Positions 6,046 through 62,386 of a stretch of 62,386 nucleotides of DNA are shown one piece after another. The position numbers and the translations under genes were made by a program. Within the stretch, counting starts at the first letter, position 1. Each line of letters begins with the position of its first letter. The notes beneath the pieces are model-generated. The model saw nothing but the letters and a program-made list of their open reading frames with translations. It had not been told where the DNA came from and ran no database searches. Origin of the DNA: Bilabrum cf. latius (lineage: Eukaryota); assembly GCA_965178125.1 (NCBI GenBank), contig OZ237735.1, forward strand, positions 2,790,001 through 2,852,386, in the 5' to 3' direction.

Positions 6046-6189
6046 TGGGGGGGATTGATGTGCAGGTGTCGTCAAGTCGAGCGCAACAATGCCGTTGCTT
6101 CTCTGTGTACGGGTGTACCCCAGCAATCACGCCTAATGGCATCCAATTCACAGTGCCACAGGCTTGATCTAGAGTGCCTGTAATCGCCT

Positions 6190-26340: not shown

Positions 26341-29300
26341 ATGCGAATGGATCGCCTGGGAATCGACCGATTTTGGCGACTGCCGGTACCGCCTTCCAGT
26401 CTTAAAACGCACGAATCTCGCAGGAAACAAGAGGTTTCAAAGAGCCTCAAAGTGGAATCGGTATCCAAAACGCCTGGTCTAATTGAAAGTGCCAACCCAG
26501 AAAGATTTTCGATTGCAGGCACAGCTGCAACTCCCGCAGAGCTTACTGGGTGAGCGCACGCACTGTTCCTGCCAAACTCCTAAATGGGCATCAAATCATC
26601 GCGACTAGTGAGGCTAATTTCTCTCATCATATTTGCAGTACGCATCCGGAAGAGCAGTCCCCTGTGACTTCGTTTCCTCACAAGAAACTGTCCTTTTCGG
26701 CTGCATTGAGCGCTGACACACCGGGCCCCAGCTCTCCAAGGACTGACCAGGTTAACGATCCGCTCGCAAGCGGGGTGAAGGTCATCAAGAGAAAGAGTGC
26801 AGTAGCTAGCGCTGCGACCTCCGCAACGGGTGCCCCTGGCGAGGATGCAATCGGGGGGGACCAGCGACTGCGCGTGTTTCTCCGAGTGCGGCCGCTGAGC
26901 GAGGACGAGCAGAAGAAGAACCCCGATGGGCCCGTGCTCGAAGTCCAGGACAAAGAAACTGTCGTGCTTCGGCCCCCGCCGGAAGCAGTAGCACAGAGCG
27001 ATGTCAATGAGTTCAAGTTCGACGGCGTGTTCGGCCCAGACGCCTCGTAGCAGAAGGTGTACCAGGGGGCGCTCAAGCGCACGGTGCAGTCGGCGCTGCA
27101 GAAGGGGACATCCGGTCTGCTGTTTTGCTACGGCATGACCAATGCCGGAAAGACGTTCACCGTCCAGGGAACAGACGCGCGCCCCGGCCTGCTCCCTCGC
27201 GCGCTGCACCACATCTTCAAGGGGGTCGGGCAGCTGCACAGCAAGCAGCAGCAGGCCGAAGAAGATGCGGCTGCTGCGGGAGAAGCCGTGTCCGCCGGAT
27301 CTGATGCAGCAGGTACCACCTGGTCGACGGAGGTGTCCTTCCTCGAGGTGCACAACGACAGGCTGTTCGACCTCCTGTCGGACCCGCTGGACCCGTCAAC
27401 GGGCATGCCCAGGCCCAGGGCGGCGCTCACTGCCAAAGAGGGCAGGGACGGGCGGGTGCACGTGCGGGGCCTCCGCAGCGTGGTGGTACCCAGCCTGCAG
27501 CGGGCACTGGAGGTGATGAAGCAAGGGGGCTCCAACCGGGCCATGGCGGAGACCATGCTCAACGCAGATTCGAGCCGGTCACACGCGGTGTTTATCGTGA
27601 GCATCTACAAGCACAGGGCCGGAACTGGCGGAGACGCGGGCGAGGATGAGTCCAGCGAGGACAGCAAGCTGGCAGCAGGCAAGGGAAGGCCCAAGCGGGG
27701 GACTCGCAAGCCCGCAGTGCCCACCGCGAGCACTGCTCATGCGAGCCCCAGCGTGGAGCTGTGGTCGAGAGTCTGCATCGTGGATCTCGCGGGAAGCGAG
27801 CGCCAGGCCAGGACCAAGGCGAGTGGGGCGCGTCTGAGGGAAGCTGGCCGCATCAACACGTCACTGATGCACCTGATGCGCTGCTTGGAGATCATGCGCC
27901 ACAACGCCAAGGCGCTTTCGAGCGGGCAGCCCGCGCCGAAGCTGCAGCACGTGCCGTTCCGAGCATCCAAGTTGACCCGGCTGTTGGCAGATTTCCTGGC
28001 AAGAGATGACGAAGACAGCAAGGGGCGCAGAGTCGGCGGTGGTGACGTGACGATGGTTGTGAACGCTTGCCCCAGCGCAGCCGATTACGACGAGACGCTG
28101 CACGCTCTCAAATACGCCGCAGTGGCCAGGGAGGTCAAGATGGGGGCGGCGGCCGCGGGGCAGCAAGACCATCGCGCGCATGTTAAGGAACAAGCGGCGG
28201 CAGCTGACCAGTATGACGAGCACGGCAGGAGGCGGGGAGCTGCACGCCGCAAGAGGGAGGAGCAGGCCGCCAAGGAGAAGCAGCGCAGGGCCAAGGCTGC
28301 GGCTGGCAACCACAAGGCCGCTGGCAGAGCTGGGAAGGGAGAAAGGCGCAGGGGTGGCGGTGGAGGCAAGGGGGGAGTGGCCAGCAGCGCCGTGAAGGGC
28401 GAGACTGATGCGGCCGACGACACCGGCACTGCGCACGGGCAGCCAGCCTCGGCTACTCAGCCCAGGGGCAGTCTGGCGCAGGGCGAGGCACCCGAGGCAG
28501 GGACCCCGGCGAGCAGAAGCATGCAAAGCATGCCCGGGTCTGCTGCAACTGCTGCCTCGCCCGCCGCATCGGTGATGGGCGAGCTGGCGGCGGTGCGAGC
28601 TGAAAACGAGGCGCTGCTGGCGGCGCTGGAGGAGTCCGAGGAGCGGGCGGCCCAGCTAGAGGCCGAGGTGCGGGAAGAGGTGAGCCGCGAGATGGAGCAG
28701 CGCATCCAGGAGATCCAGGCAGAGGTCCGAAGGGGCCAGGAGGACGCGGAGAAGAGGGCCGAGGACAGGCTGAGGCGCATGCTGGCCGTGCAGCAGGCGC
28801 GCACCACTGGGAGAGCTGTGAGGAGCCGCCGCAGGACCGCAAGCGAGGCAGGGGAACAGATGGAGGAGGTAGAGGATGACGACACGCGCCGTGTGAGCAG
28901 CGCAGACACTGCCTCCACCCGCGACTTGGGCGACACAACCGATGATGGGGAGGAGGAGGACGACGACGATTCCGTCGCGAGTCTAGAGGAGGAGGACGGG
29001 CATGGCGACACTGGGACGGTGCGGGCCAGTGCCCTGAAGAGCGCCATGCGAGGAGCCGCCATGGCAGAGGAGAGGAGGGCAGCCCGGCGGTCCTCCATGC
29101 TCTCAGCGCTGAGCGGGACGCTCGCCAAAGTGGCTGCGGACGTGGCGGACGGGCTTGCAAGCGCCTCTGCCTCCACCAAGAAGGGGAGGCGGCACCTGCA
29201 TGTGCCGAGGCGGTGCACTATTGGCACGCAGGCCACTCTGACTCCCGGTCGAGAGAGCGATGCGGACACGGCCGACCTGGAGGGCCCAGAGCGAGAGGTG

Positions 29301-31037
29301 AGGGAGCTGCGGCGGGCGGTGGCAGAGTGCGAGGCCGAAATGGAGCGCATGCGGCGGCGCTGGGAGGACGAGGTGAGCGAGTGGCAGGACAAGCTCGAGC
29401 AGGCGCACTTCGAGGCGGCCGAGCTGGAGCAGCTCAGGGCCACGGCAGAGACCAGGGCAGAGCAGCTAGAGCAACAGCTGCTCGGCGGCCCCGCGATTAC
29501 AGGTGCCCGAGCGCAGGGCAAGGGCACTCCGGTTGGGCAGAGCACAGGCTTCGCTCGTGCTGCCATGGTGCACACGGCGGGGGCAGCGCTGCAGGGGGGG
29601 AGGCCAGGCGTGATGGGCACGCTGCACAATTACCTCGGTCCTCGAGCGGCGGGCATGACGGGCATGCAGACCGTGGCCATGGCCCTGTCGTCCAGCCTGG
29701 GTCATGGCCAGGTGCCCGTTGGGAGCGGTGCCTCTGCCCGGTAGGGGACGCAGACACCCAGGGCGGGGTCCCCGGCGGGTGCATCCGTCGCCACGGGCCG
29801 CAGTGCCGTGGTCGTGAACTCCACGGTGTTCGGATCGCCCGCTGCAGCCATGGCCGTGCTGCGCGGGGAGGGTGTGGAGGTGGACTCGCCTGACCAGCAA
29901 GAAGAGGAGCACGAGCACGAGCAGAATTGTGACGATGCGGCCAGCCAGGATGCTGGCGAGGACGGCGGCGACGAGGTGTCGGTCAGCGATCAGGCTACGG
30001 TAGAGGCAACGGACGAGGATGGCGCACCCTCTGGCGCAGAGCAAGACCTTGCTTCGGCTGCAGCCGCCCCGGCTGATGATGCCGAAGCAGACAGCGAGGA
30101 AGATGCAGGCAGCGAGGACGATGCTTCCGAGACTGAATTGGACTCTAGATCTGAGGCAGGGTCGTGCATTGGTGCTGACCAGGATGCCATGAATAGCGAA
30201 TCTGCAGCAGGAGCGGCAGCATCAGCATCACCTGCGGGGTCTGAGGGCGGCGAGAGCGGAGTGGAGGAAGAGGGCCGTAATGATGGTGGCGAGCCAGAGG
30301 GTGCAGGTGAGCAAGATGACTCATCTGGTAGCGAGGATGAGGATGAGGATGGGGAGGCTTACGAGGAGGAGGAAGATGACGAGGAGGCCTACGAAGACGA
30401 GGAAGCGAGCGATGCCTCTCCCCGCAAGCAGCAAGTGGCTGTCCCCACCAGGCCAGCTCGAGCTGCCCGCAGAGCGAGGAAGCCCACGTATGCGGACCGA
30501 CCTAGGCCCAAGGGGCGAGGGCGAGCTGGGGCCGGAGCTGGGGTGCGGGGCACTGGTCTTGCGATGCCAGATTCTGAGAGCGACGAGGAGGAGGAGGGGG
30601 AGGAGGAGGATATGACGCAACCGGCGGGCAGGGGCAGGGGCAAGGGCAAGGGTTTCCGTCAGCGCGCAGCAGGTGTGCTGCAGCGCCATGCCGAAGAAGA
30701 TGCCGAAGAGCAAGATCAAGAGGGGTTCGTTGATGGCCAGCTGGATGAATCCGATGCTGGGGCTGGTCAAGAGGACGATGCGGACGAGGAGAGAGAGGAT
30801 GACTCGGGGGATGAAGAGGAGGAGGAGGAGGAAGAAGACTATGAAGAGGAGGATTCCGATGTGGAAATCGTGGAGAATGGTGCTGATAGCGATGCCATGG
30901 ATCGCAAACCTTTGGCTGAGGTGAGAGGGGGAAGGCCAGCAGGGGCTGCTGCAGAGGGAAAGCCTGCTGTGGCACAGGCGGGCGGAGCTGCTGGGCCGAC
31001 TCCAATTGCCGCACGGGTGAGAAGGCGACGCCGCTGA
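26341..31037 (+). CDS. Kinesin, probably kinesin-6 (MKLP/KIF20-23-like); intron 26550-26638; TAG at 27048, 29742
   Basis: LRVFLRVRP, FKFDGVFGPDAS*QKVY, GLLFCYGMTNAGKTFT, NADSSRSH, VDLAGSER and VPFRASKLTRLL, followed by a coiled-coil and an acidic tail. Confidence 0.9.
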
Positions 31038-34679: not shown

Positions 34680-34862
34680 CGATCCCTAAATTCGTCCAAG
34701 ACGTCGTTCATTTGACCTGTGTTGCACTACGGCGGCACGCCTATATTTGAAATAGCACGTTATCTAGACGCAGCGACCACTTCTCGAGCGGGATCATGGG
34801 CTGGTTGTCCCCACTGGGAATTATTTGGGGAAAAGATTTCTTGAATTTATTGTTATAGTATC

Positions 34863-37800
34863 ATGCCTTCAAAATCGAGGCCTTCGAAGCAGCGAGCGCA
34901 CGTAACCAGGGCATGTGTGAGGGAAGAATCCAGTGGAATAACTATGTTGGCAGCGGCTCAGATGCAATCGATCCTTCTGCTGAATACTCGTGCGCCCTCC
35001 GGTCGCAGGATACGTGCCGCAAACGACGGGCAAAATGCAATGGGGCAAACCCATGCGCTGGTTGCTCAAAACTTGGTGTAGACTGTACGTACTCTGCTCC
35101 GTCGAAGAAGCGAGGGCCTAAGCCAGGGTCAATAAAGAGCATGAGGGAGGAGTTCCAGGCCATGCTTGCAAGACTTACGGAACTAACAGAAGAAAACAGA
35201 CAGCTTAGGCTTGCTGCCATGGCGAACTCTGCCGGTCCAATGACGGGTCCAGCGGTCGCTGCAACTGACGGTCTTGCAACACTTTCTCATGTAGCTGGCG
35301 TTGCAAGCAGCCAAAGCTCTGCTGCAAAATGGATCCAAGGGCCAGATAGCGCTGCCCGAGCCGCTGCAGAGTCGGCAACTACCAAGCCAGCCCCATCTCA
35401 CGGATCAGCTGGGCTGAGCCTCTACGGGGCCGAGCAAGCCACCAACATGGCCGACTAGGCAACCTAGGCCAACAGAGACTCTGCACCACAGTCCAAAGCG
35501 CAGCAGGTTGCTTCCTCCCGATCTGGTGCTGGGGAGCAAGGCCGCCCGGGAGAATCGCGGACCTCCGGCAACACCCCCGGGCAGAAGTGGAACACGGAGG
35601 GGCTGCGAGTGGGGGGGGACTCAGCCGAGTCAGCCAAGCTGCAGGCCGCCCTTCGGGGCCGAGAGGATGCAAGTAGCCCCGAAGTACCCCCGCCGCTGCA
35701 CCCTCCACCCCCAATGCACCACACGAAGCTGCCCTCTGGTGGAGTCCGCATGATGGGTCCCCAGAACCTCATGACTGCCCGCCTGCCCATCGCCTCCATC
35801 GCGTCAGGGCCCATGCGGGAGCGGGTGGGCGCGCGCCACGGGAGCATGAAGCTGGGGGCCGCTGTGGATGACCTTCGTGTCGCGGGTCGATCGGGAGAGC
35901 CTGTGCTGGCGGGTGCTGGTGCGGGTGCGGGTGCGGGTGCTGGTGCTGGTGCGGGTGCTGGTGCTGGTGCTGGTGCTGGTGCTGGTGCCGATGACAGCAC
36001 GGAGGAGAGGGTAGGGAAGCGAAGGAGGCTGGAGGAGGGCCCTGCGACGGTGTAGCAGAACCAGCAGTCGCTTCGTCTTGTGGACATTCCGCCAGACTGG
36101 CTGCTGGTTCTGCTGCGGGCCTATCTCCGGCACGTGCAGGGAACGGCCTCGCTGAACCTGACCTGCGCCGGTTCCCTCGCCCGTGCCGTCAAGGTGCTGG
36201 ACCAGAAGGGGGCCTTCACGCCACTGCCGCGCCGCATCTCCGACGACCTTCCCGGCCGGAGCAAGCTGCTCGGTATACCTGTCGCAGGCCCTGCTGGGCG
36301 TGGGCAGGCACCTATCCCCAAGTCACAGATGCAGAGAAATGGTGTCTAGATCAAAGCAACAGACGGTCCAGACTCGAGCCAGCCTGCTGCCAGCAGCTCT
36401 CGGCAGCCGAGCATGGACCCGGGCCAGGACTCCCGCAGTCCGACTGGCGAAGACCCGCTGCCCCCACTCGCCGTCTCGGTGTCTGTGCCGGTACGCTCCC
36501 CCATGGCTGGCCGGAAGCGACAGCGCGCGGAGGCTGCCTCCACCACCTCCGGGGGGTCTGCCGGACCATCGTCATCGCCATCAGTTGCTTCAGATGCAAT
36601 GCATGATCTGCTGGAAGAAGACATGACCTTCTCTCTCCTCCGAATGATGGAGCCGGCTGGTGGGCTGCCGCTAGACGAGGCATTCGGCGTGGGCGAGCAG
36701 CCCCTCTCCGACGATGAACAGGATTCGCCGTCGGGTGTGCAGCCAGGCGTGGTGTTCTCGCAGCCAGACATGCGACCTTAGCACTTGAGAGGGCATCCAG
36801 ATGCTGCTGAGGCCGGTGTGCCTTGGCCCCGCACATACAGAGCTGTGGCTAGCTGGCTGTAGCAATACCACGCGTGCGGTGGGCGTATTGTGCAGCGCCC
36901 GTTGCGGCTGAGCTCCTTCGGGCCGTCAGCGGAGCTTGTTGGTGCAGGTGCTACAATCTATGCGGCTTGCGCTTCGGGTGCCCGGGCGTGCGGCTGCGGC
37001 TCGCTGGGAGACGCGCTGCTGCTGCGGGCGCGAGCACTGATGTCACGCATCATGGATGGACCCTCCGAATTCGGCCACATTGCGTGCTCCATCCTGTCCA
37101 ACTATTGCTGCATGGTCATGGATTTGGCGCGAGCTGGTGTGTATGGGGTGCTCGCTTGGCGGCAGGCGGCATATTTAGGGTTGCATCCCGGCGATGGCAG
37201 TCGTGGGAGTGCCACTCTGTTTACGCGGCAGATGTCCTGCATTGATATGCCGACTTTGATGCCGCGATCACTACCCTCCTACAAAGACGTAGTCAAGTAC
37301 TGGCAGGAAGGTGCGGGTAGGGATGTGGAGGAGGGCGACCAGCAGTGGAGCCAATACAGGGTGCTGGCTCCAGGTGCAAGAAGCGGCAGCGAAGCAGAGG
37401 CAGCAGTTTCTAGGGCAGACAAGCCTCTGTGGCGAATCACGTCTGCGGAAGTCGGGGCGGGACAAGTGCAAGCCATTCGATACGGGCACATCGAAAGTCC
37501 AGATGGAACGGCTGGGGAAGGTGGAGACGACGATGCCTCCGTGGATTCCTCGCTTCCCAGGCCCCCCGCCCGCCCTAGCAGCCTTGAAGCTGGAGGCCCG
37601 ACTGGTCCCGATCACATGCCGAGCTGGTAGCCTGACAATGGCAGCATACCCGAAAATAGGAGTGTTGGCTTGAGTAGCATCGGAGGCGGTAGCTGGGCGA
37701 CGAATCACCTCGGGGGCCTTGCAGCAGATGCAGCTAGTGTGAGGGGAGAGGAGCCGGGCGAGGCTCCTGAGGGCCTTCTCGACAGAGATGGTGCCGAGTC

Positions 37801-40426
37801 ATCCTCTGCGTCAATGAATGGCACGAGAGAGGATGCGCTTGCTCGAAAGATGCGGATTCAGCGGTTCGTGCCTGCCGTTGCGCTGGCAAGAGGACCGTCC
37901 GGGTGGACTACGAATGGCCGTGTGGCAGAGCTCTGGGGCTTCATCCTGAGCAAGCTCATGCACAACTTGGGGGGATACCTGCGCCCCGAATCGTGGGAAG
38001 CGATTTATCAGTGCACTGCAGAGCTCGAGAAGATCTCGAATCACGAGGGCGAGCGCAGGCTGATCGAGATGCACGGCGAGACCCCCTCCATGCTGGCGCT
38101 GCTGCATGCCACCTGCTGCATCGTGCACGCGAGGCACTGGAATGTAGAGAGAGCAATTGTGTATGGAGTGCGAGCTGCCACGCTAATTGCTCGCGAAAGC
38201 GCACAAAATGCTCTCGTGACACCTGCGGGTGCTTTCTTGTATCGTCATGTGTGCGTATTCCTTCGCCAACGAGAAGCGGACGGATGGAGCATCCCAGCTC
38301 CGCAGCAGCTGTGGGTGGACGCATCCGACAAGAAGAAAGGATTTGATGCGGCTGCATTCCCTGCCATGCAGTTCTATGCGCCTTCTAGTGCTTCTTCATC
38401 GAATGCAAGTCGCAGCCAGGATGATTCGCTCTGGTACGAGACCCCGCTGTTTGTAAGCAGCATGTACTCAGCTCGCGTGTGGCCCATGGCTGCCAGGATG
38501 CTCTCAGGGCTCGTGCAGGAGTATGATGCCCGCGGGTGGACAGTGCCTGCATTCTTGCTTGAGACGAGAGCCGGCAGCACGCCGTGCACCAAGAGCTCAT
38601 CCCTTCTAGCTCCAGTGCGAGCTGTTTTGCATGCCGCGGACGAGTCGGCGGACTCGCTTCGGGCGGCTGCCATTTGCGACTTAATCGCAGGCGCCGACGG
38701 ACAAGTCCGAGATGCTGACTCGGCTCCGCCTCTTGATGCCTCCTCAAGAGTCAACTGTGCCCATACGGGTGCGCGCCGGAGGCGGCGAGTAGCTGCACTT
38801 GTGCACCTGGCACCACCCATCGCGGCGAGGGTTGGCATCCGGCTCCCTTGGGCTCCGCATGTCGATACATTCGTCTACCCCGGTGCCGGTATGCTAAAGC
38901 GGCTTGTTGTGCAGTCGTTGGCCAAGAGTGGTACGTCAAGGGGAGCTTCATCAAGAGTAGCGCAGCAGGCATCAGATAGAACCGACGTTGCGCCGCTCGA
39001 AGGCATCAAAGCGCGGGCAGCCAAGGCTAGTGAGGCGCAGGCCACAGTAGCCATCGCCTTGTAGCCAGAGACTGCCTCTGCACCTGCGTACATCGACGAA
39101 GGGCATGCAGAAGCCCTAAAATCTGCTGTAAAGGACGCGCAGATTTCACCGAGCTCTACGCAAAAATCGCACTAGGCCGTAGAGCATTTGAAGTCCAAGG
39201 TCCCTTAGCTTATGAAGGTGTTCGATCCAAATCACCTGGACGTGATTCGCCCGAACAACCCCGATAAGTCCGGTCCTGCAGATGCTAGCAGTGCGGCGGC
39301 CCGTGCACCGGCCACACAGGAGGAGCATCCGCACATGGTCCAAGTCGCAGTCATGGCCCGGTTCCTTTCCAAGTGGGCCAGGAGCTCTGAGGTGCTTGGG
39401 CCACTGGCAGATCATTGTGGCAGCGGTAGCAGCAACTCTCGGGGCGGGTCAGCCCAGATAAACGTAGATCTGCTGAAGTCTGGGCCTGAAGCGCTACTGC
39501 CAAGGGAGGCCACTGTAGCAGCCACGTCCACTGTATCGGGCGATTCTGCAGAGCGAGGAAAGGCCTCTCTCGGATCCACGGGAGCAGCCACCTCGAGATC
39601 GGGAGACGGCTCTGCGCATGAATCTATGCAGGCTGCCCCTCCTTCCCCTGCTGAGGCGTAGTAGTTTGCCTCGCAAGCGGCGCTCGCGGCAGCGCGGACC
39701 GGAGCAGTTGTTGGCATTTCTCTGCCTCCCGCGGTAGCAGGCACTGCACCTGAACGCAACGGAGTTTGGGCTAATTTGCACCTCCATGTGGCGGATGGTA
39801 GCCCCCGGCCATCTGCCACAGACGGATAGGTACCGCTGAGCCGAATCCCCGGTGGAAAGCAAGCGGGCGGCAACAGCAGCCTGTACGGGCCGCCAGCATC
39901 TGTCGATAACGGCAGCGTGGCTAGCAGCTGGCAGGCAGGGCATCGTCCAACTGGCTTTCACGGCGGGTACAGCCAAGGGGTGCAGGGAGCTTTCTCGGTT
40001 GCAATGCCCGGAGGGATGCAGACGGGTGGCATGCTGGCTGTTGCACCCCCTGGCACGCCACACATGCTTGCCAGAGCTGGATCCATGACTGGCATGCCGA
40101 GCCGAGCGATGAGTATCCCCAGTAGCATTGTAATCAGCTAGGATGCAGTTGAAACGCGAGGAAGCAGTGGTGAGATGTCCCAGGTCGGCGGTGAGAGCCG
40201 AGGACCGCAGGGTGGTCAGCTGGCAAGGGCTGGGGCGGGCGCACCCCCAGGCACTGACGCACGGCACCGCCCGAGCAGCCCAGCAGGTACAGAGGTATCG
40301 TCTGTGTCGTCGTCGATGGCTCTGCTGGCGCACGCAGCGTCTATCTCTGGGTCCATCGACTCGGGGGGGACGGGGTGGACGAGGAGCAGGCGCCGGAAGC
40401 GATCGACTGGCAGGTCGAATCGGTGA
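34863..40426 (+). CDS. Zn(II)2Cys6 (GAL4-type) transcription factor, ~1820 aa (intron 34917-35008)
   Basis: Splicing yields RAC|DTCRKRRAKCNGANPCAGCSKLGVDCTY....KKRGPK plus a coiled-coil. The 5.4-kb second exon has 14 in-frame TAG and no TAA/TGA until 40424. Confidence 0.85.
35911..35988 (+). repeat. (GGTGCN)n hexamer repeat encoding poly(Gly-Ala) within the Zn2Cys6 gene
   Basis: About 13 copies of GGTGCT/GGTGCG, read directly from the sequence. Confidence 0.9.
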
Positions 40427-49769: not shown

Positions 49770-49822
49770 CTTCAACTGCAACTCTGCGAGATTTTAGCCA
49801 GACCTGAGCATTTTTCCCCACA

Positions 49823-52800
49823 ATGTCACGCTCATTTTCAGCATTGAAGCCTAAATTATCGTCTGAGTCGATTAGGGCTGTAAATTCCCTTGGATTCTCG
49901 CAGTGCACGCCGGTGCAGAATGCAACTATACCCCTCTTTCTTAAGAAGAAGGACGTTGTCGCAGAGGCGGTAACGGGTTCCGGGAAAACCCTGGCGTTCT
50001 TATTGCCAATGCTTGACTTGATTCAGCAGGCAGCAAGGAAAGCTGTAGCCGAAGGAGACTCGCTAGTAGCGAACCGAGTGCTAGGGATGGTCGTGTCCCC
50101 AACACGCGAACTTGCTGCACAAACACACAAAGTTATGCAGGAAATTTTGCCATTCTATTTCCATGGGGCCTCTGGGTAGAGCATATTGAAGTCAACCCTG
50201 CTTGTTGGGGGTACAGACGTGGATGAGTCCATCCGGGAGTGCGTGCAAGATGGCTGTCACGTGGTTGTTTGCACGCCTGGGCGAGTCCTAGATATGCTGG
50301 ACAGGAAGTACAAGCCATTGTTAATGAAACAATCGAGCGATAGAAATGCTGGTGATAGCTCCAGCTAGGGATCAAGCGAAGCTAGTGTCCTGCAGGTGCA
50401 GTCTCTGCAAGTCCTCGTCATGGACGAAGCCGACATGCTGCTCGAGCTGGGGTTCGAGCGAGCCATGGGCCGCCTATTGGAGCAGCTCCCCAAGTCCCGA
50501 GTCACCGCGCTCTTTTCTGCGACCCAAACGAAGGAAGTGCGCGCCCTGGCCATGGCGGGCATGCTGGACCCAGTGGCCGTGAGAGTGAGGGTCGCAGCCC
50601 CCAAACAAGCTGCCGACGGGGAGCAGAAACGCGGGAGTGCGCCGCTAGACAGTGCACAAGCTTCGTCTTCGTCTGGTTCATCAGCACCTGGTACAGCCTC
50701 TTCTGCATCGAGCAGCGCCATGCCGACTGGGTCCATGCGGTTGCCCACCCGACTAGCTTGCTACTCTGTGCGCTGCCCAGCCGCTTCCAAAATGGGCGCC
50801 CTCGTGTCACTGCTCAGACGATGCTTTGCAGTATCCACAAAGAGCGGAAGTACAGCGCAGGCACACGGATTGACTCCCCGCGCCCCGAAGCTCATCGTGT
50901 TTGCTCTCACGTGTGCCACGGTCGAGTACCTGGCCCGGGTGCTGGCGGCACCTGTGTATGCTCAGAACTTGCAGGGACTGTCAGAGGCGCTGCGACGGAC
51001 TGCATCAGGCCGGGTTGTAATGAGCGGTGCTGCACAGAGTGCTTCGAGCAGCTCCAGCGGGGCATCAGGGACTGGCAGTCCTTCTACCGCGCACGCACCG
51101 ACCGCGGTGCAGCGATACGTGGCAGAGTGGGCGCTTGCTGCCCCGCGGCAGGCCACGAAGCACTGGCGCACCAAGTCAGCATCTTCGAGTGCAGGCGCAG
51201 GATCTGTACCAAGCAACTCGTCGAGCACTACGTCAGCCTAGCAGACAGCTGGTCTACCCGATCAACCTTGGAGAACGTTTCCACTGCTAGCGCTCCACGG
51301 CAAGATGCCGCAGAAGAAGCGGAGGGCGGTGCTGGACGCATTTCGAGCAGCACCTGCGGGCGTGCTCGTGTGCACCGACGTTGCAGCCAGGGGTCTGGAT
51401 GTACCGGATGTAGACTGTGTGGTGCAGCTCGACGCCCCGAAGGAGGTGGATACATACGTGCACCGTGTGGGCAGGGCAGCACGAGCGGGTCGATCTGGGT
51501 CTGCGTGCATCCTGCTGTCTCCGACAGAGCGGGACTTCGAAGAGCTCCTGAGGCTCAAGGGGCTGCCCGTGCAGACCTTGGACGGTATTGACCCTTCTGC
51601 ACTGGCACCTGGCGTGCTGCCACAGCTCGATGAGGATACTTTAGAAGCTGAGACAGCCCAGTGCGCTGCTGCGTGGAGACACCTGGCTGCCTCAGATCGA
51701 GCCGTGCTGGAAGCTGGCAGCAATGCGGTGCTGGCTCATCTGCGGGGGTACAGCGAGCACATTCAGAAGCTGGCACTTCCTTTCAGCAAACTTGACATTG
51801 CTGGCATCTGCAGGAGCTGGGGCTTGCTCAAGTCGCCCAACGTCAAAGAGACGAGAGGTATGCCACCCAAGCAGAAGGACTGGTGGGCGGACCCAGCCGA
51901 GGTGGATCTGCCCGCGCTGTCAGCAAAAAAAGATGATGCTGTTGCAGAGCAATCAAAGCAGAGGCGGAAGCACAAAAAGGGCAAAAAGTCGGGGAAACAG
52001 CCGCCAAAGCCGCGTGGACCGGTGTACCGCTGGCCTGTGCCGGACACCTCAGTGGTGCGTTTCTTGGACCCCGAGAGAGAGGCAGCCCGCCAGCTGCGGC
52101 TGTAGAAGGAAGCAGAGCGCACGGCTGAGGTGGCTGCCAAGCTAGGCATCATGGGAGCCAGCTCTGGGGCCTCTGTCCCGAAGATGTCGGGGAAGGGTGA
52201 GAGGGCGATGGCAGCTGCAGCCAAGCAGCAGGCCATGCGAGCCAAGGCGGAGCACGAAGCGGAGTAGGTTGCCAAAGGGAAGGCGCTGGGGCGAAAGCGT
52301 AAGGGGCAGCAGCAACGCCTGTTCGAGGAGTGGGACGAGCTGGCGGACGAGAGCAGGCTGCTGCGCAAGCTCAAGAGGGGGGAGATCACTGACGAACAGT
52401 TCGACGAGCTGACGGGGGGAGGGCCTGCGGCTTCCGGTGCGGGGGCGGGGATGGAAGAGTCTGTTGGTGGCACGGATAGCAGTGCAGGAGGGGAGGTGGA
52501 CGAGGACTTGCCGTCGGCCAAGCGGCGTCGAGTGGAGGGGGGCGGGGGCCCAGCTTTAGCAAGCAGCGGCGGGTCACGAGCGGGCTCCAGCAGGAGCGCA
52601 CTGCTGGCGGCAGTCAAGGCTACGGTGCTTGGAGGCAAGCATGCGAGCAAGGCAGCAGCCCTGCAGAGTCAAGGGCAGTCTTCCGCTGACGGCAGCGCGG
52701 GTGGGGTGGTGCAGCGCCTGCACGAACAGCACAGGCGGCAGAAGAGGCATGCTTCGAAGTCTACCAGAAAGGTTCGGGCAGTGCGAAAGGCGAAGCGAAA

Positions 52801-52840
52801 CAGCTAGCAAAGCTAGGGGGGGCGTGGTAAGAAACGCTAA
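49823..52840 (+). CDS. DDX55: DEAD-box RNA helicase DDX55/Spb4
   Basis: GFSQCTPVQ..TIPLFL.KKDVVAEAVTGSGKTLAF, SPTRELA, TPGR, DEAD, FSATQT, LHGKMPQKKR, TDVAARGLD and HRVGRAAR. Seven in-frame TAGs; ends GGRGKKR-TAA. Confidence 0.9.
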
Positions 52841-52885
52841 AACTGATGCGTGTACCAGATATTTTGCAGCAATCACGACTGCAGG

Positions 52886-53545
52886 TCAGCGTTCGCGCCG
52901 TCCACGACCTCCTTTCGTGCCTTGTCCTTTTCTCCTTCCAGATGATCCCACTCGCCACGTGCCTTTGCGAGTAAACTATCGCCAAAACTTCTTCGCTTCT
53001 TCGTAGGGGATCCTCTGCGGCAACGTCGCGCCGACTATACTACAGATCGCATCCTAGTCTGCTTCAGAGAACCTCAGGTGCGCATCCTCAATTAATGGGT
53101 ACAGTCGCGGGGGGGTCGAGGCGTGTATATTAATAACCTGAAGTATTTCGTGGTCTGCAAGGGCTAGCACCCGCTACCTAGCCGAAGTCGACTGCGTCTC
53201 GCTTGTCTCGGACCGAATCGGACTTGGTCCGGCGGCATCTTTAAGCGGTGAGCTAGCTCCTTCATCGCCATCAGCAGCAGAAGTCCTTCCACCTCGAAAA
53301 TCTTGCAATGCCTTCACAGCTCGGGCAGCATCTGGTGTCTTCACTGCATTGCTTGAAGTTTGCGAAACGTACTTCAACACACTTTTCTCGAGCCACCGAA
53401 CTGCTCCAGGCGGGTCAGGAACCCCCAGTCTTCCACCACGCTACTAAAAGGTACCTGCAGATTCTTGCAGGCTTGCTTTCTCCCTCAGAAACTCTGCCAC
53501 TTCGCAATTGAGCATGCGCCCTGCATTGTCATCAAGGCAACTCAT
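52886..53545 (-). CDS. RPC9: RNA polymerase III subunit RPC9/C17 (RPB4 family); five in-frame TAGs
   Basis: With TAG as sense: MSCLDDNAGRMLNCEVAEFLRE...WLEKSVLKYVSQT...LADHEILQVIN......LYPLIED...RFSE..*DAI..IV, which follows the RPC9/CRCP pattern. Confidence 0.7.
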
Positions 53546-53820
53546 TGGAGCTGCGGCAGGCTACGACGACTTCCGACTAAACGCTGGGATTCCTACTCGG
53601 CAAGCTTAACGTGGTATGCAAGCAGTTTCAAGATGCCGACGTACAAAAATCAGCTAGATACTGAGGCCTTCCATGATTCATCGTCTGCTGGCGATCCGCA
53701 TGACGAGTGCGACTGCAGCAGCGAACTGTTGTGTGGTTGTGTGGTTGTATCGTTGTATGCGTGCATGAGCGAAGCAATGCAACCCAATATCCTTATCCAC
53801 AGCTCATCTATGTAGTTCCC

Positions 53821-54150
53821 CTCGTCCACCGCCCAGCCGAACCACACCCATGCACCTCATCCACCGCCCATACCCCTCGTCCACCGCCCAGCCGAACCAC
53901 ACCCATGCACCTCATCCACCGCCCATACCCCTCGTCCACCGCCCAGCCGAACCACACCCATGCACCTCATCCACCGCCCATACCCCTCGTCCACCGACCA
54001 GCCGAACCACACCCATGCACCTCATCCACCGCCCATACCCCTTGTCCACCGACCAGCCGAACCACACCCATGCACCTCATCCACCGCCCATACCCCTCGT
54101 CCACCGACCAGCCGAACCACACCCATGCACCTCATCCACCGCCCATACCC
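53821..54150 (+). repeat. Subtelomeric tandem repeat, 6 x 55 bp
   Basis: The unit CTCGTCCACCGCCCAGCCGAACCACACCCATGCACCTCATCCACCGCCCATACCC starts at 53821, 53876, 53931, 53986, 54041 and 54096. Confidence 0.95.
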
Positions 54151-54155
54151 CTTTG

Positions 54156-54574
54156 GGGTTTAGGGTTAGGGTTAGGGTTAGGGTTAGGGTTAGGGTTAGG
54201 GTTAGGGTTAGGGTTAGGGTTAGGGTTAGGGTTAGGGTTAGGGTTAGGGTTAGGGTTAGGGTTAGGGTTAGGGTTAGGGTTAGGGTTAGGGTTAGGGTTA
54301 GGGTTAGGGTTAGGGTTAGGGTTAGGGTTAGGGTTAGGGTTAGGGTTAGGGTTAGGGTTAGGGTTAGGGTTAGGGTTAGGGTTAGGGTTAGGGTTAGGGT
54401 TAGGGTTAGGGTTAGGGTTAGGGTTAGGGTTAGGGTTAGGGTTAGGGTTAGGGTTAGGGTTAGGGTTAGGGTTAGGGTTAGGGTTAGGGTTAGGGTTAGG
54501 GTTAGGGTTAGGGTTAGGGTTAGGGTTAGGGTTAGGGTTAGGGTTAGGGTTAGGGTTAGGGTTAGGGTTAGGGT
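54156..54574 (+). repeat. Proximal telomeric tract (TTAGGG)n
   Basis: About 420 bp of TTAGGG, with the G-strand running towards the window end. Confidence 0.98.
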
Positions 54575-57500
54575 ATCTAATATAAAGTCAGGGACAGGGT
54601 CGGGGAAAAAATATTTTCATCTTCAATATTTGTCGAAAAACGACGTGCTACGATCTCGGCAACTACAGGTGATATGAAGACCGTTCAAACTGCATCGGGA
54701 CGGCCTGGGGGCACAACATGGGCCAAATGTTCCCCAGGTTCCGTTCTGGCCGCGCGGCGCCGATATGGGTGTATGAAGAATTTCACACCGAAAAACGACG
54801 TGCTACGATCTCGGCAACTACAGGTGATATGAAGACCGTTCAAACTGCATCGGGACGGCCTGGGGGCACAACATGGGCCAAATGTTCCCCAGGTTCCGTT
54901 CTGGCCGCGCGGCGCCGATATGGGTGTATGAAGAATTTCACACCGAAAAACGACGTGCTACGATCTCGGCAACTACAGGTGATATGAAGACCGTTCAAAC
55001 TGCATCGGGACGGCCTGGGGGCACAACATGGGCCAAATGTTCCCCAGGTTCCGTTCTGGCCGCGCGGCGCCGATATGGGTGTATGAAGAATTTCACACCG
55101 AAAAACGACGTGCTACGATCTCGGCAACTACAGGTGATATGAAGACCGTTCAAACTGCATCGGGACGGCCTGGGGGCAAAACATGGGCCAAATATTCCCC
55201 AGGTTCCGTTCTGGCCGCGCGGCGCCGATATGGGTGTATGAAGAATTTCACAGGGTTTAGGGTTAGGGTTAGGGTTAGGGTTAGGGTTAGGGTTAGGGTT
55301 AGGGTTAGGGTTAGGGTTAGGGTTAGGGTTAGGGTTAGGGTTAGGGTTAGGGTTAGGGTTAGGGTTAGGGTTAGGGTTAGGGTTAGGGTTAGGGTTAGGG
55401 TTAGGGTTAGGGTTAGGGTTAGGGTTAGGGTTAGGGTTAGGGTTAGGGTTAGGGTTAGGGTTAGGGTTAGGGTTAGGGTTAGGGTTAGGGTTAGGGTTAG
55501 GGTTAGGGTTAGGGTTAGGGTTAGGGTTAGGGTTAGGGTTAGGGTTAGGGTTAGGGTTAGGGTTAGGGTTAGGGTTAGGGTTAGGGTTAGGGTTAGGGTT
55601 AGGGTTAGGGTTAGGGTTAGGGTTAGGGTTAGGGTTAGGGTTAGGGTTAGGGTTAGGGTTAGGGTTAGGGTTAGGGTTAGGGTTAGGGTTAGGGTTAGGG
55701 TTAGGGTTAGGGTTAGGGTTAGGGTTAGGGTTAGGGTTAGGGTTAGGGTTAGGGTTAGGGTTAGGGTTAGGGTTAGGGTTAGGGTTAGGGTTAGGGTTAG
55801 GGTTAGGGTTAGGGTTAGGGTTAGGGTTAGGGTTAGGGTTAGGGTTAGGGTTAGGGTTAGGGTTAGGGTTAGGGTTAGGGTTAGGGTTAGGGTTAGGGTT
55901 AGGGTTAGGGTTAGGGTTAGGGTTAGGGTTAGGGTTAGGGTTAGGGTTAGGGTTAGGGTTAGGGTTAGGGTATCTAATATAAAGTCAGGGACAGGGTCGG
56001 GGAAAAAATATTTTCATCTTCAATATTTGTCGAAAAACGACGTGCTACGATCTCGGCAACTACAGGTGATATGAAGACCGTTCAAACTGCATCGGGACGG
56101 CCTGGGGGCACAACATGGGCCAAATGTTCCCCAGGTTCCGTTCTGGCCGCGCGGCGCCGATATGGGTGTATGAAGAATTTCACACCGAAAAACGACGTGC
56201 TACGATCTCGGCAACTACAGGTGATATGAAGACCGTTCAAACTGCATCGGGACGGCCTGGGGGCACAACATGGGCCAAATGTTCCCCAGGTTCCGTTCTG
56301 GCCGCGCGGCGCCGATATGGGTGTATGAAGAATTTCACACCGAAAAACGACGTGCTACGATCTCGGCAACTACAGGTGATATGAAGACCGTTCAAACTGC
56401 ATCGGGACGGCCTGGGGGCACAACATGGGCCAAATGTTCCCCAGGTTCCGTTCTGGCCGCGCGGCGCCGATATGGGTGTATGAAGAATTTCACACCGAAA
56501 AACGACGTGCTACGATCTCGGCAACTACAGGTGATATGAAGACCGTTCAAACTGCATCGGGACGGCCTGGGGGCAAAACATGGGCCAAATATTCCCCAGG
56601 TTCCGTTCTGGCCGCGCGGCGCCGATATGGGTGTATGAAGAATTTCACAGGGTTTAGGGTTAGGGTTAGGGTTAGGGTTAGGGTTAGGGTTAGGGTTAGG
56701 GTTAGGGTTAGGGTTAGGGTTAGGGTTAGGGTTAGGGTTAGGGTTAGGGTTAGGGTTAGGGTTAGGGTTAGGGTTAGGGTTAGGGTTAGGGTTAGGGTTA
56801 GGGTTAGGGTTAGGGTTAGGGTTAGGGTTAGGGTTAGGGTTAGGGTTAGGGTTAGGGTTAGGGTTAGGGTTAGGGTTAGGGTTAGGGTTAGGGTTAGGGT
56901 TAGGGTTAGGGTTAGGGTTAGGGTTAGGGTTAGGGTTAGGGTTAGGGTTAGGGTTAGGGTTAGGGTTAGGGTTAGGGTTAGGGTTAGGGTTAGGGTTAGG
57001 GTTAGGGTTAGGGTTAGGGTTAGGGTTAGGGTTAGGGTTAGGGTTAGGGTTAGGGTTAGGGTTAGGGTTAGGGTTAGGGTTAGGGTTAGGGTTAGGGTTA
57101 GGGTTAGGGTTAGGGTTAGGGTTAGGGTTAGGGTTAGGGTTAGGGTTAGGGTTAGGGTTAGGGTTAGGGTTAGGGTTAGGGTTAGGGTTAGGGTTAGGGT
57201 TAGGGTTAGGGTTAGGGTTAGGGTTAGGGTTAGGGTTAGGGTTAGGGTTAGGGTTAGGGTTAGGGTTAGGGTTAGGGTTAGGGTTAGGGTTAGGGTTAGG
57301 GTTAGGGTTAGGGTTAGGGTTAGGGTTAGGGTTAGGGTTAGGGTTAGGGTTAGGGTTAGGGTTAGGGTTAGGGTTAGGGTATCTAATATAAAGTCAGGGA
57401 CAGGGTCGGGGAAAAAATATTTTCATCTTCAATATTTGTCGAAAAACGACGTGCTACGATCTCGGCAACTACAGGTGATATGAAGACCGTTCAAACTGCA

Positions 57501-60500
57501 TCGGGACGGCCTGGGGGCACAACATGGGCCAAATGTTCCCCAGGTTCCGTTCTGGCCGCGCGGCGCCGATATGGGTGTATGAAGAATTTCACACCGAAAA
57601 ACGACGTGCTACGATCTCGGCAACTACAGGTGATATGAAGACCGTTCAAACTGCATCGGGACGGCCTGGGGGCACAACATGGGCCAAATGTTCCCCAGGT
57701 TCCGTTCTGGCCGCGCGGCGCCGATATGGGTGTATGAAGAATTTCACACCGAAAAACGACGTGCTACGATCTCGGCAACTACAGGTGATATGAAGACCGT
57801 TCAAACTGCATCGGGACGGCCTGGGGGCACAACATGGGCCAAATGTTCCCCAGGTTCCGTTCTGGCCGCGCGGCGCCGATATGGGTGTATGAAGAATTTC
57901 ACACCGAAAAACGACGTGCTACGATCTCGGCAACTACAGGTGATATGAAGACCGTTCAAACTGCATCGGGACGGCCTGGGGGCAAAACATGGGCCAAATA
58001 TTCCCCAGGTTCCGTTCTGGCCGCGCGGCGCCGATATGGGTGTATGAAGAATTTCACAGGGTTTAGGGTTAGGGTTAGGGTTAGGGTTAGGGTTAGGGTT
58101 AGGGTTAGGGTTAGGGTTAGGGTTAGGGTTAGGGTTAGGGTTAGGGTTAGGGTTAGGGTTAGGGTTAGGGTTAGGGTTAGGGTTAGGGTTAGGGTTAGGG
58201 TTAGGGTTAGGGTTAGGGTTAGGGTTAGGGTTAGGGTTAGGGTTAGGGTTAGGGTTAGGGTTAGGGTTAGGGTTAGGGTTAGGGTTAGGGTTAGGGTTAG
58301 GGTTAGGGTTAGGGTTAGGGTTAGGGTTAGGGTTAGGGTTAGGGTTAGGGTTAGGGTTAGGGTTAGGGTTAGGGTTAGGGTTAGGGTTAGGGTTAGGGTT
58401 AGGGTTAGGGTTAGGGTTAGGGTTAGGGTTAGGGTTAGGGTTAGGGTTAGGGTTAGGGTTAGGGTTAGGGTTAGGGTTAGGGTTAGGGTTAGGGTTAGGG
58501 TTAGGGTTAGGGTTAGGGTTAGGGTTAGGGTTAGGGTTAGGGTTAGGGTTAGGGTTAGGGTTAGGGTTAGGGTTAGGGTTAGGGTTAGGGTTAGGGTTAG
58601 GGTTAGGGTTAGGGTTAGGGTTAGGGTTAGGGTTAGGGTTAGGGTTAGGGTTAGGGTTAGGGTTAGGGTTAGGGTTAGGGTTAGGGTTAGGGTTAGGGTT
58701 AGGGTTAGGGTTAGGGTTAGGGTTAGGGTTAGGGTTAGGGTTAGGGTTAGGGTTAGGGTATCTAATATAAAGTCAGGGACAGGGTCGGGGAAAAAATATT
58801 TTCATCTTCAATATTTGTCGAAAAACGACGTGCTACGATCTCGGCAACTACAGGTGATATGAAGACCGTTCAAACTGCATCGGGACGGCCTGGGGGCACA
58901 ACATGGGCCAAATGTTCCCCAGGTTCCGTTCTGGCCGCGCGGCGCCGATATGGGTGTATGAAGAATTTCACACCGAAAAACGACGTGCTACGATCTCGGC
59001 AACTACAGGTGATATGAAGACCGTTCAAACTGCATCGGGACGGCCTGGGGGCACAACATGGGCCAAATGTTCCCCAGGTTCCGTTCTGGCCGCGCGGCGC
59101 CGATATGGGTGTATGAAGAATTTCACACCGAAAAACGACGTGCTACGATCTCGGCAACTACAGGTGATATGAAGACCGTTCAAACTGCATCGGGACGGCC
59201 TGGGGGCACAACATGGGCCAAATGTTCCCCAGGTTCCGTTCTGGCCGCGCGGCGCCGATATGGGTGTATGAAGAATTTCACACCGAAAAACGACGTGCTA
59301 CGATCTCGGCAACTACAGGTGATATGAAGACCGTTCAAACTGCATCGGGACGGCCTGGGGGCAAAACATGGGCCAAATATTCCCCAGGTTCCGTTCTGGC
59401 CGCGCGGCGCCGATATGGGTGTATGAAGAATTTCACAGGGTTTAGGGTTAGGGTTAGGGTTAGGGTTAGGGTTAGGGTTAGGGTTAGGGTTAGGGTTAGG
59501 GTTAGGGTTAGGGTTAGGGTTAGGGTTAGGGTTAGGGTTAGGGTTAGGGTTAGGGTTAGGGTTAGGGTTAGGGTTAGGGTTAGGGTTAGGGTTAGGGTTA
59601 GGGTTAGGGTTAGGGTTAGGGTTAGGGTTAGGGTTAGGGTTAGGGTTAGGGTTAGGGTTAGGGTTAGGGTTAGGGTTAGGGTTAGGGTTAGGGTTAGGGT
59701 TAGGGTTAGGGTTAGGGTTAGGGTTAGGGTTAGGGTTAGGGTTAGGGTTAGGGTTAGGGTTAGGGTTAGGGTTAGGGTTAGGGTTAGGGTTAGGGTTAGG
59801 GTTAGGGTTAGGGTTAGGGTTAGGGTTAGGGTTAGGGTTAGGGTTAGGGTTAGGGTTAGGGTTAGGGTTAGGGTTAGGGTTAGGGTTAGGGTTAGGGTTA
59901 GGGTTAGGGTTAGGGTTAGGGTTAGGGTTAGGGTTAGGGTTAGGGTTAGGGTTAGGGTTAGGGTTAGGGTTAGGGTTAGGGTTAGGGTTAGGGTTAGGGT
60001 TAGGGTTAGGGTTAGGGTTAGGGTTAGGGTTAGGGTTAGGGTTAGGGTTAGGGTTAGGGTTAGGGTTAGGGTTAGGGTTAGGGTTAGGGTTAGGGTTAGG
60101 GTTAGGGTTAGGGTTAGGGTTAGGGTTAGGGTTAGGGTTAGGGTTAGGGTTAGGGTTAGGGTTAGGGTTAGGGTTAGGGTTAGGGTATCTAATATAAAGT
60201 CAGGGACAGGGTCGGGGAAAAAATATTTTCATCTTCAATATTTGTCGAAAAACGACGTGCTACGATCTCGGCAACTACAGGTGATATGAAGACCGTTCAA
60301 ACTGCATCGGGACGGCCTGGGGGCACAACATGGGCCAAATGTTCCCCAGGTTCCGTTCTGGCCGCGCGGCGCCGATATGGGTGTATGAAGAATTTCACAC
60401 CGAAAAACGACGTGCTACGATCTCGGCAACTACAGGTGATATGAAGACCGTTCAAACTGCATCGGGACGGCCTGGGGGCACAACATGGGCCAAATGTTCC

Positions 60501-62386
60501 CCAGGTTCCGTTCTGGCCGCGCGGCGCCGATATGGGTGTATGAAGAATTTCACACCGAAAAACGACGTGCTACGATCTCGGCAACTACAGGTGATATGAA
60601 GACCGTTCAAACTGCATCGGGACGGCCTGGGGGCACAACATGGGCCAAATGTTCCCCAGGTTCCGTTCTGGCCGCGCGGCGCCGATATGGGTGTATGAAG
60701 AATTTCACACCGAAAAACGACGTGCTACGATCTCGGCAACTACAGGTGATATGAAGACCGTTCAAACTGCATCGGGACGGCCTGGGGGCAAAACATGGGC
60801 CAAATATTCCCCAGGTTCCGTTCTGGCCGCGCGGCGCCGATATGGGTGTATGAAGAATTTCACAGGGTTTAGGGTTAGGGTTAGGGTTAGGGTTAGGGTT
60901 AGGGTTAGGGTTAGGGTTAGGGTTAGGGTTAGGGTTAGGGTTAGGGTTAGGGTTAGGGTTAGGGTTAGGGTTAGGGTTAGGGTTAGGGTTAGGGTTAGGG
61001 TTAGGGTTAGGGTTAGGGTTAGGGTTAGGGTTAGGGTTAGGGTTAGGGTTAGGGTTAGGGTTAGGGTTAGGGTTAGGGTTAGGGTTAGGGTTAGGGTTAG
61101 GGTTAGGGTTAGGGTTAGGGTTAGGGTTAGGGTTAGGGTTAGGGTTAGGGTTAGGGTTAGGGTTAGGGTTAGGGTTAGGGTTAGGGTTAGGGTTAGGGTT
61201 AGGGTTAGGGTTAGGGTTAGGGTTAGGGTTAGGGTTAGGGTTAGGGTTAGGGTTAGGGTTAGGGTTAGGGTTAGGGTTAGGGTTAGGGTTAGGGTTAGGG
61301 TTAGGGTTAGGGTTAGGGTTAGGGTTAGGGTTAGGGTTAGGGTTAGGGTTAGGGTTAGGGTTAGGGTTAGGGTTAGGGTTAGGGTTAGGGTTAGGGTTAG
61401 GGTTAGGGTTAGGGTTAGGGTTAGGGTTAGGGTTAGGGTTAGGGTTAGGGTTAGGGTTAGGGTTAGGGTTAGGGTTAGGGTTAGGGTTAGGGTTAGGGTT
61501 AGGGTTAGGGTTAGGGTTAGGGTTAGGGTTAGGGTTAGGGTTAGGGTTAGGGTTAGGGTTAGGGTTAGGGTTAGGGTATCTAATATAAAGTCAGGGACAG
61601 GGTCGGGGAAAAAATATTTTCATCTTCAATATTTGTCGAAAAACGACGTGCTACGATCTCGGCAACTACAGGTGATATGAAGACCGTTCAAACTGCATCG
61701 GGACGGCCTGGGGGCACAACATGGGCCAAATGTTCCCCAGGTTCCGTTCTGGCCGCGCGGCGCCGATATGGGTGTATGAAGAATTTCACACCGAAAAACG
61801 ACGTGCTACGATCTCGGCAACTACAGGTGATATGAAGACCGTTCAAACTGCATCGGGACGGCCTGGGGGCACAACATGGGCCAAATGTTCCCCAGGTTCC
61901 GTTCTGGCCGCGCGGCGCCGATATGGGTGTATGAAGAATTTCACACCGAAAAACGACGTGCTACGATCTCGGCAACTACAGGTGATATGAAGACCGTTCA
62001 AACTGCATCGGGACGGCCTGGGGGCACAACATGGGCCAAATGTTCCCCAGGTTCCGTTCTGGCCGCGCGGCGCCGATATGGGTGTATGAAGAATTTCACA
62101 CCGAAAAACGACGTGCTACGATCTCGGCAACTACAGGTGATATGAAGACCGTTCAAACTGCATCGGGACGGCCTGGGGGCAAAACATGGGCCAAATATTC
62201 CCCAGGTTCCGTTCTGGCCGCGCGGCGCCGATATGGGTGTATGAAGAATTTCACAGGGTTTAGGGTTAGGGTTAGGGTTAGGGTTAGGGTTAGGGTTAGG
62301 GTTAGGGTTAGGGTTAGGGTTAGGGTTAGGGTTAGGGTTAGGGTTAGGGTTAGGGTTAGGGTTAGGGTTAGGGTTAGGGTTAGGGT
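54575..62386 (+). repeat. Higher-order telomeric array: 6 x [678-bp spacer + (TTAGGG)n]
   Basis: Spacers lie at 54575-55252, 55972-56649, 57381-58058, 58760-59437, 60187-60864 and 61578-62255. TTAGGG tracts are 719, 731, 701, 749 and 713 bp, with a truncated final tract. Confidence 0.97.
54634..55252 (+). repeat. 4 x 155-bp tandem repeat within each telomeric spacer
   Basis: Units start at 54634, 54789, 54944 and 55099. The fourth unit carries two variants (GGCAAAACATG, AAATATTCC) in every spacer. Confidence 0.97.

Follow-up and report, generated by a model that had tools for sequence, protein, structure and literature searches.

The alternation of non-telomeric blocks with telomere repeats at chromosome ends is an architecture already known from the Y' elements of yeast, TALT and mTALT, the MoTeR elements of Magnaporthe, and the LCTAS satellites of Leishmania. 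In yku70 yeast, Y' and SUL1 amplicons are reported to form when a telomere invades an interstitial tract of its own arm, so that break-induced replication (BIR) copies the segment and then, repeatedly, the new junction (PMC13515017). This pseudo-rolling-circle form of BIR (mmBIR in cis) is described as giving at least five identical segments, with expanded tracts that are related by descent and an invaded proximal tract that stays unchanged; the account also covers a terminal quadruplication on human 18p, with four copies and interstitial telomeric sequences of ~650 bp (PMC13515017). For Magnaporthe, the identity of interstitial telomeres was held to exclude sequential transposition, and copying via a displacement loop or a rolling circle was proposed (PMC7367193). 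Homogeneous single-nucleotide polymorphisms (SNPs) in TALT and mTALT arrays were taken to indicate amplification from a single source copy (PMC4805358; PMC10516625). Here, we describe an array of this architecture in a stretch of 62,386 nucleotides from the genome assembly of the GC-rich protist Bilabrum cf. latius (GCA_965178125.1, contig OZ237735.1, positions 2,790,001 to 2,852,386, forward strand; hereafter the window), in which six copies of a 683-bp non-coding spacer alternate with long tracts of TTAGGG. The gene-free block of nucleosome-sized satellite units and the long, perfect, element-sized tracts of ~0.7 kb set this array apart, and the literature searched, which was limited in coverage, contained no description of this arrangement in this kind of organism.

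The sequence was partitioned into spacers and tracts by cutting it at runs of at least three TTAGGG. From position 54160 onward, perfect TTAGGG hexamers and six 683-bp blocks make up the whole of the + strand (Table 1): removal of the runs leaves 4099 letters, i.e., 6 x 683 + 1, and 688 of 688 hexamers are canonical, with no variant. The six spacers are one distinct sequence, with no difference in any of the 6 x 683 bp and a divergence bound of < ~7e-4 per site per copy. Six identical copies of this length are not attainable by chance. They follow one another strictly in direct, head-to-tail orientation, at periods of 1397, 1409, 1379, 1427, and 1391 bp between spacer starts, and the five complete distal tracts hold 116 to 124 repeats (standard deviation 3.0, coefficient of variation 2.5%), the proximal tract having 69. 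The copy number is six or more; the window end falls inside the seventh tract. An earlier description made from the letters alone, the sequence-only reading, had reported six identical spacers, the same periods, intervening tracts of ~120 TTAGGG differing by whole hexamers, two SNPs in the fourth 155-bp unit of the spacer, and the letters of both spacer/telomere junctions. All of these were recovered, the periods exactly and every tract as a perfect run. Its spacer length of 678 bp (54575-55252) agrees with ours, since our 683 bp also include one T on the left and GGGT on the right, letters that do not fit the phase of the hexamers. The mean module of 1400.6 bp, telomere tract included, corresponds to 9.04 x 155 bp, or about nine nucleosome-sized units, which may be a coincidence.

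The G-rich strand runs 5' to 3' towards the window end, as it would in a true right-hand telomere. On the proximal side, the 69-repeat tract and a 55-bp minisatellite belong to the structure of the array, and genes reach within 1.3 kb of the first tract. Judged by its strand orientation and flanks, the array would thus occupy a terminal position, and we infer that it is a genuine chromosome-end array. The minisatellite (98% matches) directly abuts the first tract, and its C-rich strand is the one that carries the G-rich telomere repeat.

Because no difference was found across 6 x 683 bp and the coefficient of variation of the tracts is as low as 2.5%, the data support a recent amplification of one template comprising spacer and tract, in line with what had been proposed from the sequence alone. 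Invasion in random register was simulated in 2,000,000 arrays. Five tracts fell within an 8-repeat range at a frequency of 4e-5, and a uniform model gave 9e-6. Invasion in random register is therefore disfavored, because it would scatter the tract lengths, whereas those observed lie between 116 and 124 repeats.

The origin that we favor, with a probability of roughly 0.5, is pseudo-rolling-circle BIR in cis, or the copying of an excised 1.4-kb circle. The ancestral end would have comprised unique DNA, the 55-bp minisatellite, an interstitial TTAGGG tract (now of 69 repeats), one spacer, and a terminal telomere. BIR would have been primed when this telomere, intact or broken, invaded either the proximal tract of its own arm or a 1.4-kb circle that had been excised. 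Upon reaching the new telomere/tract junction, the replication bubble could have recopied junction and spacer repeatedly, in pseudo-rolling-circle or true rolling-circle fashion, with a head-to-tail array of identical spacers as the outcome, each expanded internal tract being descended from one ~120-repeat junction. The 69-repeat tract would represent the older, interstitial tract that was invaded. BIR is slippage-prone, and the differences of 1 to 8 hexamers among the tracts may have come about through slippage while a perfect repeat was replicated. Ordinary TTAGGG repeats presumably cap the end. Rolling-circle copying or BIR, both put forward in the sequence-only reading, fit the array; the refinement to pseudo-rolling-circle BIR in cis also predicts a deviant proximal tract, according to the yeast account (PMC13515017), and hence the tract of 69 repeats.

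Table 1. Features of the telomeric array and its proximal flank (positions in the window; run partition, cutting at runs of at least three TTAGGG).
Feature	Position	Strand	Remark
55-bp C-rich minisatellite x 6.1	53818..54152	+	no similarity to spacer; last unit cut at start of telomere repeat; chromosome-specific, subtelomeric
Junction letters TTGGGGT	54153..54159	+	with next hexamer, GGGTTTAGGG; first "repeat" shared with the distal end of every spacer
Proximal tract (TTAGGG)69, perfect	54160..54573	+	length unlike the 116-124 of the other tracts
Spacer copy 1 (61-nt leader + 4 x 155-bp units)	54574..55256	+	unit 4 with two SNPs
Leader of copy 1	54574..54634
Unit 1 of copy 1	54635..54789
Unit 2 of copy 1	54790..54944
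Unit 3 of copy 1	54945..55099
Unit 4 of copy 1	55100..55254
(TTAGGG)119	55257..55970	+	run partition
Spacer copy 2, identical to copy 1	55971..56653	+	run partition
(TTAGGG)121	56654..57379	+	run partition
Spacer copy 3, identical	57380..58062	+	run partition
(TTAGGG)116	58063..58758	+	run partition
Spacer copy 4, identical	58759..59441	+	run partition
(TTAGGG)124	59442..60185	+	run partition
Spacer copy 5, identical	60186..60868	+	run partition
(TTAGGG)118	60869..61576	+	run partition
Spacer copy 6, identical	61577..62259	+	run partition
(TTAGGG)21 plus T, cut by window end	62260..62386	+	run partition

The array shares with the cis-BIR amplicons of yeast and 18p its position adjoining telomere, its head-to-tail arrangement, the identity of its segments, and a copy number of at least five, and with 18p a near-equal size of internal tracts (~650 bp there, ~700 bp here). 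In those amplicons, the resident array is homogeneous against a background of genome-wide variation; here, family variants present at 11-31% in sequencing-run contigs are absent from the 24 units of the window, with the proviso that the contigs are short and their depth uncalibrated. The repeated segments differ in nature: a 683-bp non-coding satellite in the window, against helicase-encoding Y' elements of 5-7 kb, 25 kb of gene region, or 54 kb in the yeast and human cases. Furthermore, the array comes from a protist genome assembly, unlike the amplicons of yku70 yeast, which arose under telomere stress; formation dependent on BIR factors (Pol32) or on such stress is a mark of that class. TALT1 and TALT2 of C. 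elegans and mTALT of mouse are also non-telomeric blocks with telomere flanks that were duplicated head-to-tail at chromosome ends, but their arrays are described from telomerase-deficient survivors, at all ends, with a known subtelomeric reservoir copy, and mTALT measures 7.4 kb (PMC4805358; PMC10516625). The likeness to Y' type-I arrays and TALT that the sequence-only reading had drawn is apt, as judged from the published descriptions (PMC4805358; PMC13515017).

A precedent in wild-type cells is the architecture of Leishmania LCTAS, in which blocks of TTAGGG are interspersed with short non-coding satellites at the ends and which are thought to be maintained by terminal amplification (PMC12676763). 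The likeness is one of architecture only, the module of the window being a regular 1.4-kb higher-order unit with tracts of ~0.7 kb, and Leishmania is not a close relative of the host: two window proteins, a kinesin and a pyruvate kinase, are ~30-48% identical to named homologues from many phyla. The naturally telomerase-free Microstromatales yeasts differ more, as they are reported to have lost TTAGGG altogether (PMC13234504).

Each spacer consists of a leader and four satellite units (period 155 bp, 4.0 copies, 99% matches in Tandem Repeats Finder). Two substitutions set unit 4 apart from unit 1, C>A at position 80 of the unit and G>A at its position 95, both lacking from units 1 to 3, and the final CC>GG of unit 4 is the junction itself, which leads as GGGT into the following tract. 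The leader comprises a 14-nucleotide AT-rich stretch, the telomere-like hexamers TCAGGG ACAGGG TCGGGG, and an A6TAT4C near-palindrome. No open reading frame (ORF) of the spacer matched a Pfam family, the lone PF02819 hit being sub-threshold noise (E = 0.013, 16.2 bits versus a cut-off of 21.3), and the unit period of 155 bp is not a multiple of three; the view that the spacer has no coding capacity therefore stands. The helicase ORF that is a hallmark of Y' is likewise missing from the spacer, none of whose ORFs has a family match. Rfam gave 0 matches on 53000-56000 at E <= 1, a search for inverted repeats in 54560-54800 found 0 pairs, and the single-strand DNA fold of leader plus unit was unremarkable (z = -1.88; 6 of 200 shuffles folded equally well). 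Two exact-pattern scans of Joint Genome Institute (JGI) metagenome contigs with unit sequences returned 0 loci each.

These properties bear on the proposal that the spacer is a telomere-targeting retroelement of the non-autonomous kind, comparable to MoTeR2, SART/TRAS, or Athena-type elements. Its RNA, complementary to the + strand and with a C-strand-like 3' end, would anneal to the G-overhang and be reverse-transcribed, telomerase would re-cap the end, and the cycle would repeat. The fixed head-to-tail orientation with telomere tracts between copies agrees with such a cycle, and the three telomere-like hexamers at the centromere-proximal end of the spacer could have formed the C-strand-like 3' tail of the putative RNA. 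The non-coding 1.7-kb MoTeR2 forms comparable fixed-orientation, head-to-tail arrays with (TTAGGG)n between copies and telomere-like variant repeats at one end (PMC7367193). However, MoTeR tracts are described as ranging from half a repeat to little over 20, compared with ~120 here; the telomere-like repeats are distal (5') in MoTeRs and proximal in the window; and MoTeR2 shares its termini with the reverse-transcriptase-encoding MoTeR1, whereas no such partner is known here (PMC7367193). Sequential insertion should also trap tracts of varied length, but the five complete ones span 116-124 repeats. No poly(A) feature, no RNA family, and no ORF with a family match were found in the spacer, nor any reverse transcriptase among the window ORF translations scanned (14 + 13). 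In contigs from the sequencing runs described below, the left (leader) junction is apparently constant and the right end lies at five unit positions, which resembles 5' truncation, but breakage within the satellite followed by healing explains variable right junctions equally well. We therefore regard a retroelement as a very unlikely source of the array. The suggestion in the sequence-only reading of a non-autonomous telomere-specific element fits the uniform tracts of the window poorly; such an element is possible as the origin of the spacer family.

Relatives of the spacer were sought by a word-index search on 51500-55300. Four runs of one organism (A, the same as that of the window) contain 0.91-0.94 of the words and three runs of two differently named organisms 0.47-0.67; runs X8-X18, with word shares of 0.05-0.10, were left out. 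Contigs of X1 and X2 (organism A) and of X5 and X6 (organisms B and C) were aligned to 54556-54820, a stretch that takes in 18 telomere letters, the leader, the whole of unit 1, and the first part of unit 2. This yielded 1227 contigs in X1, falling into identity classes of >=99%, 95-99%, 90-95%, and <90% as 440/449/259/79, and 330 in X2 (139/85/85/21). X5 and X6, with 0.67 and 0.57 of the 51500-55300 words, gave no contig on 54556-54820, which is no proof of absence. Summed word depths, uncalibrated against single-copy DNA, lay between ~1e5 and 1.2e6, the leader reaching some 40-50% of the depth of the unit. In X1 and X2 contigs, telomere repeat lies to the left of the leader; among the loose ends listed (12 of 37), none carried non-telomeric sequence there, and the left-edge one before 54559 is a variant telomere repeat. 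On the right, the unit joins telomere repeat at five positions (54708, 54745, 54773, 54787, and 54793). The spacer element is thus real, multi-copy, telomere-associated, and variable across the genome.

Two substitutions recur in the contigs, 54711 G>C (11% in X1, 17.5% in X2) and 54712 C>T (27% and 31%), and are found in 0 of the 24 units of the window array. Because these variants are absent from the window, other arrays with other variants appear to exist, and the window array appears to have been homogenized locally. Similar modules are probably present at other chromosome ends, since further copies of the spacer family, flanked by telomere repeat, exist elsewhere in the genome. Within the unit, the first ~20 letters (54635-54655), which precede a conserved GATC, are replaced in other family members by at least five unrelated short sequences, making this a hypervariable box in an otherwise conserved satellite unit.

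The existence of telomere-flanked family members elsewhere would also suit copying en bloc in trans, in which a 69-repeat telomere, having invaded a homogeneous array on a different chromosome end, replicated that array as far as its terminus by BIR, as in the spreading of Y'. The amplification itself would then have taken place elsewhere, gradually, by spacer-anchored unequal sister-chromatid exchange. Such copying also accounts for one odd proximal tract followed by uniform ones, and the other 54 kb of the window offer no local source: blastn of the spacer against 1-54160 gave matches of <=20 nucleotides only (E >= 0.11), so no internal reservoir copy lies there, and neither (TTAGGG)>=2 nor (CCCTAA)>=2 occurs in 1-54100. 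Yet under this account homogeneity would still have to be explained, now for the donor array, and more events are needed than in the cis model. Moreover, the spacer variant of the window is a minority in the family: its unit-4 SNPs are not listed among the contigs at the 10% threshold, although 25% would be expected if all arrays were alike, so a large donor of this type is not evident. We consider trans copying unlikely.

The contigs likewise bear on whether the assembly can be trusted. A real unit of tract, spacer, and tract might have gained its sixfold repetition, its identity, or its chromosomal attachment from misassembly, from polishing, or from a small circle that underwent rolling-circle amplification in the library. 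The support comes from short contigs; perfect spacers and perfect hexamers are what repeat polishing is expected to yield; the contig stops inside the array; and the very high depth of the family also fits abundant extrachromosomal circles. On the other hand, the five complete tracts all differ in length, whereas equal lengths would be expected if a collapsed loop had been traversed or phi29 had made a faithful concatemer, and this per-copy variation argues against an assembler having unrolled a single collapsed loop. A distinct tract of 69 repeats links the array to unique DNA, and the flanking genes are free of frameshifts once TAG is read as sense (see below), which points to high consensus quality. 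Library chimeras are usually inverted, whereas the array is direct. Taken as a whole, an artefact seems decidedly unlikely.

Several observations weigh against an origin by copying in cis or from a circle. The array is supported by short contigs, which cannot give copy number, order, or terminal position, and the uncalibrated depths leave the family size unfixed. The distal junction of the window itself (unit end 54787 + GGGT) is not among the six contig junction rows, which hold only the variant GGGTTTCGGG, at a depth of 21.8. The tracts are similar but not identical, and the yeast model predicts them to be "identical or nearly so," in the wording of that account (PMC13515017). Short-read polishing could make the identity of the copies partly a consensus effect, and, with a window that ends inside a tract, an interstitial location would be compatible with the sequence too. 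A different view of the module is that many or all ends are normally built of such 1.4-kb units of satellite plus ~120 TTAGGG, maintained by pseudo-rolling-circle or rolling-circle BIR in wild-type cells, with or instead of telomerase, and possibly recent in the lineage. Beyond the high, uncalibrated depth of the family this view is unsupported, and we find it quite unlikely. The natural recombination-based telomere system entertained in the sequence-only reading is likewise unsupported by these data.

Where non-telomeric DNA gives way to telomere repeat, the junctions share a start of GGGT followed by TTAGGG, which makes the first repeat TTTAGGG; such junctions follow the minisatellite (54153-54166) and the spacer (55250-55262), and two further junctions of the GGGT type occur in read contigs, after 54745 and after 54793. 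The recurrent GGGT start may be the footprint of telomerase initiating on a non-telomeric 3' end.

Analysis of the flanking genes pointed to a variant genetic code. In-frame TAG is the sole interruption of the conserved genes of the window, and, with TAG counted among the sense codons, ORFs of >=300 amino acids add up to 26721 amino acids instead of 11179. Full Pfam architectures of pyruvate kinase, a kinesin motor, a DEAD-box helicase, a coenzyme A (CoA)-transferase, and a PUB-UBX protein are restored when TAG is read as a residue. TAG-containing frames include 24286-26196, 26487-31037, 49808-52840, and 6184-7728, among others, and the long frames end in TGA, a few in TAA. On the evidence of these frames, TAG is a sense codon in the host. 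The TAG site of the kinesin is occupied by Q in 100 of 109 homologues; of the sites in the CoA-transferase, one has Q in 69 of 117 and another R or K in 71 of 117; and that of pyruvate kinase has R in 105 of 109. Glutamine, the usual reassignment, is slightly favored by these residues as the meaning of TAG. The window contains no tRNA genes. A UAR-to-glutamine code has been reported for the aphelid Amoeboaphelidium (PMC5304391).

The gene nearest the array is the DEAD-box/SPB4-type helicase frame, which ends at 52840. Farther away, an uninterrupted frame on the - strand (1131-2903) encodes an IlvD/Edd-family dehydratase, whose best matches are bacterial or metagenomic L-arabonate and dihydroxy-acid dehydratases at 65-69% identity, while the other window genes have distant eukaryotic relatives only; horizontal acquisition of the dehydratase is possible. 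A fungal-type Zn(2)-Cys(6) binuclear cluster domain is present in an 1891-amino-acid frame with 15 TAG codons (34751-40426) and hints weakly at a lineage related to fungi.

If long reads confirm the array, it would be a compact natural case of an amplification signature known from yeast mutants and seen once in human 18p. With modules of only 1.4 kb, one read can traverse many copies, and for this reason the host could serve to measure how frequently BIR copies telomeres in cells that are not perturbed. Two further questions could be addressed in it: for what time perfect 0.7-kb TTAGGG tracts are tolerated internally, and whether telomerase can share the capping role with a module of satellite plus telomere repeat. 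Were such modules indeed the standing telomere of this organism, they would constitute a natural equivalent of yeast type-I or TALT survivors.

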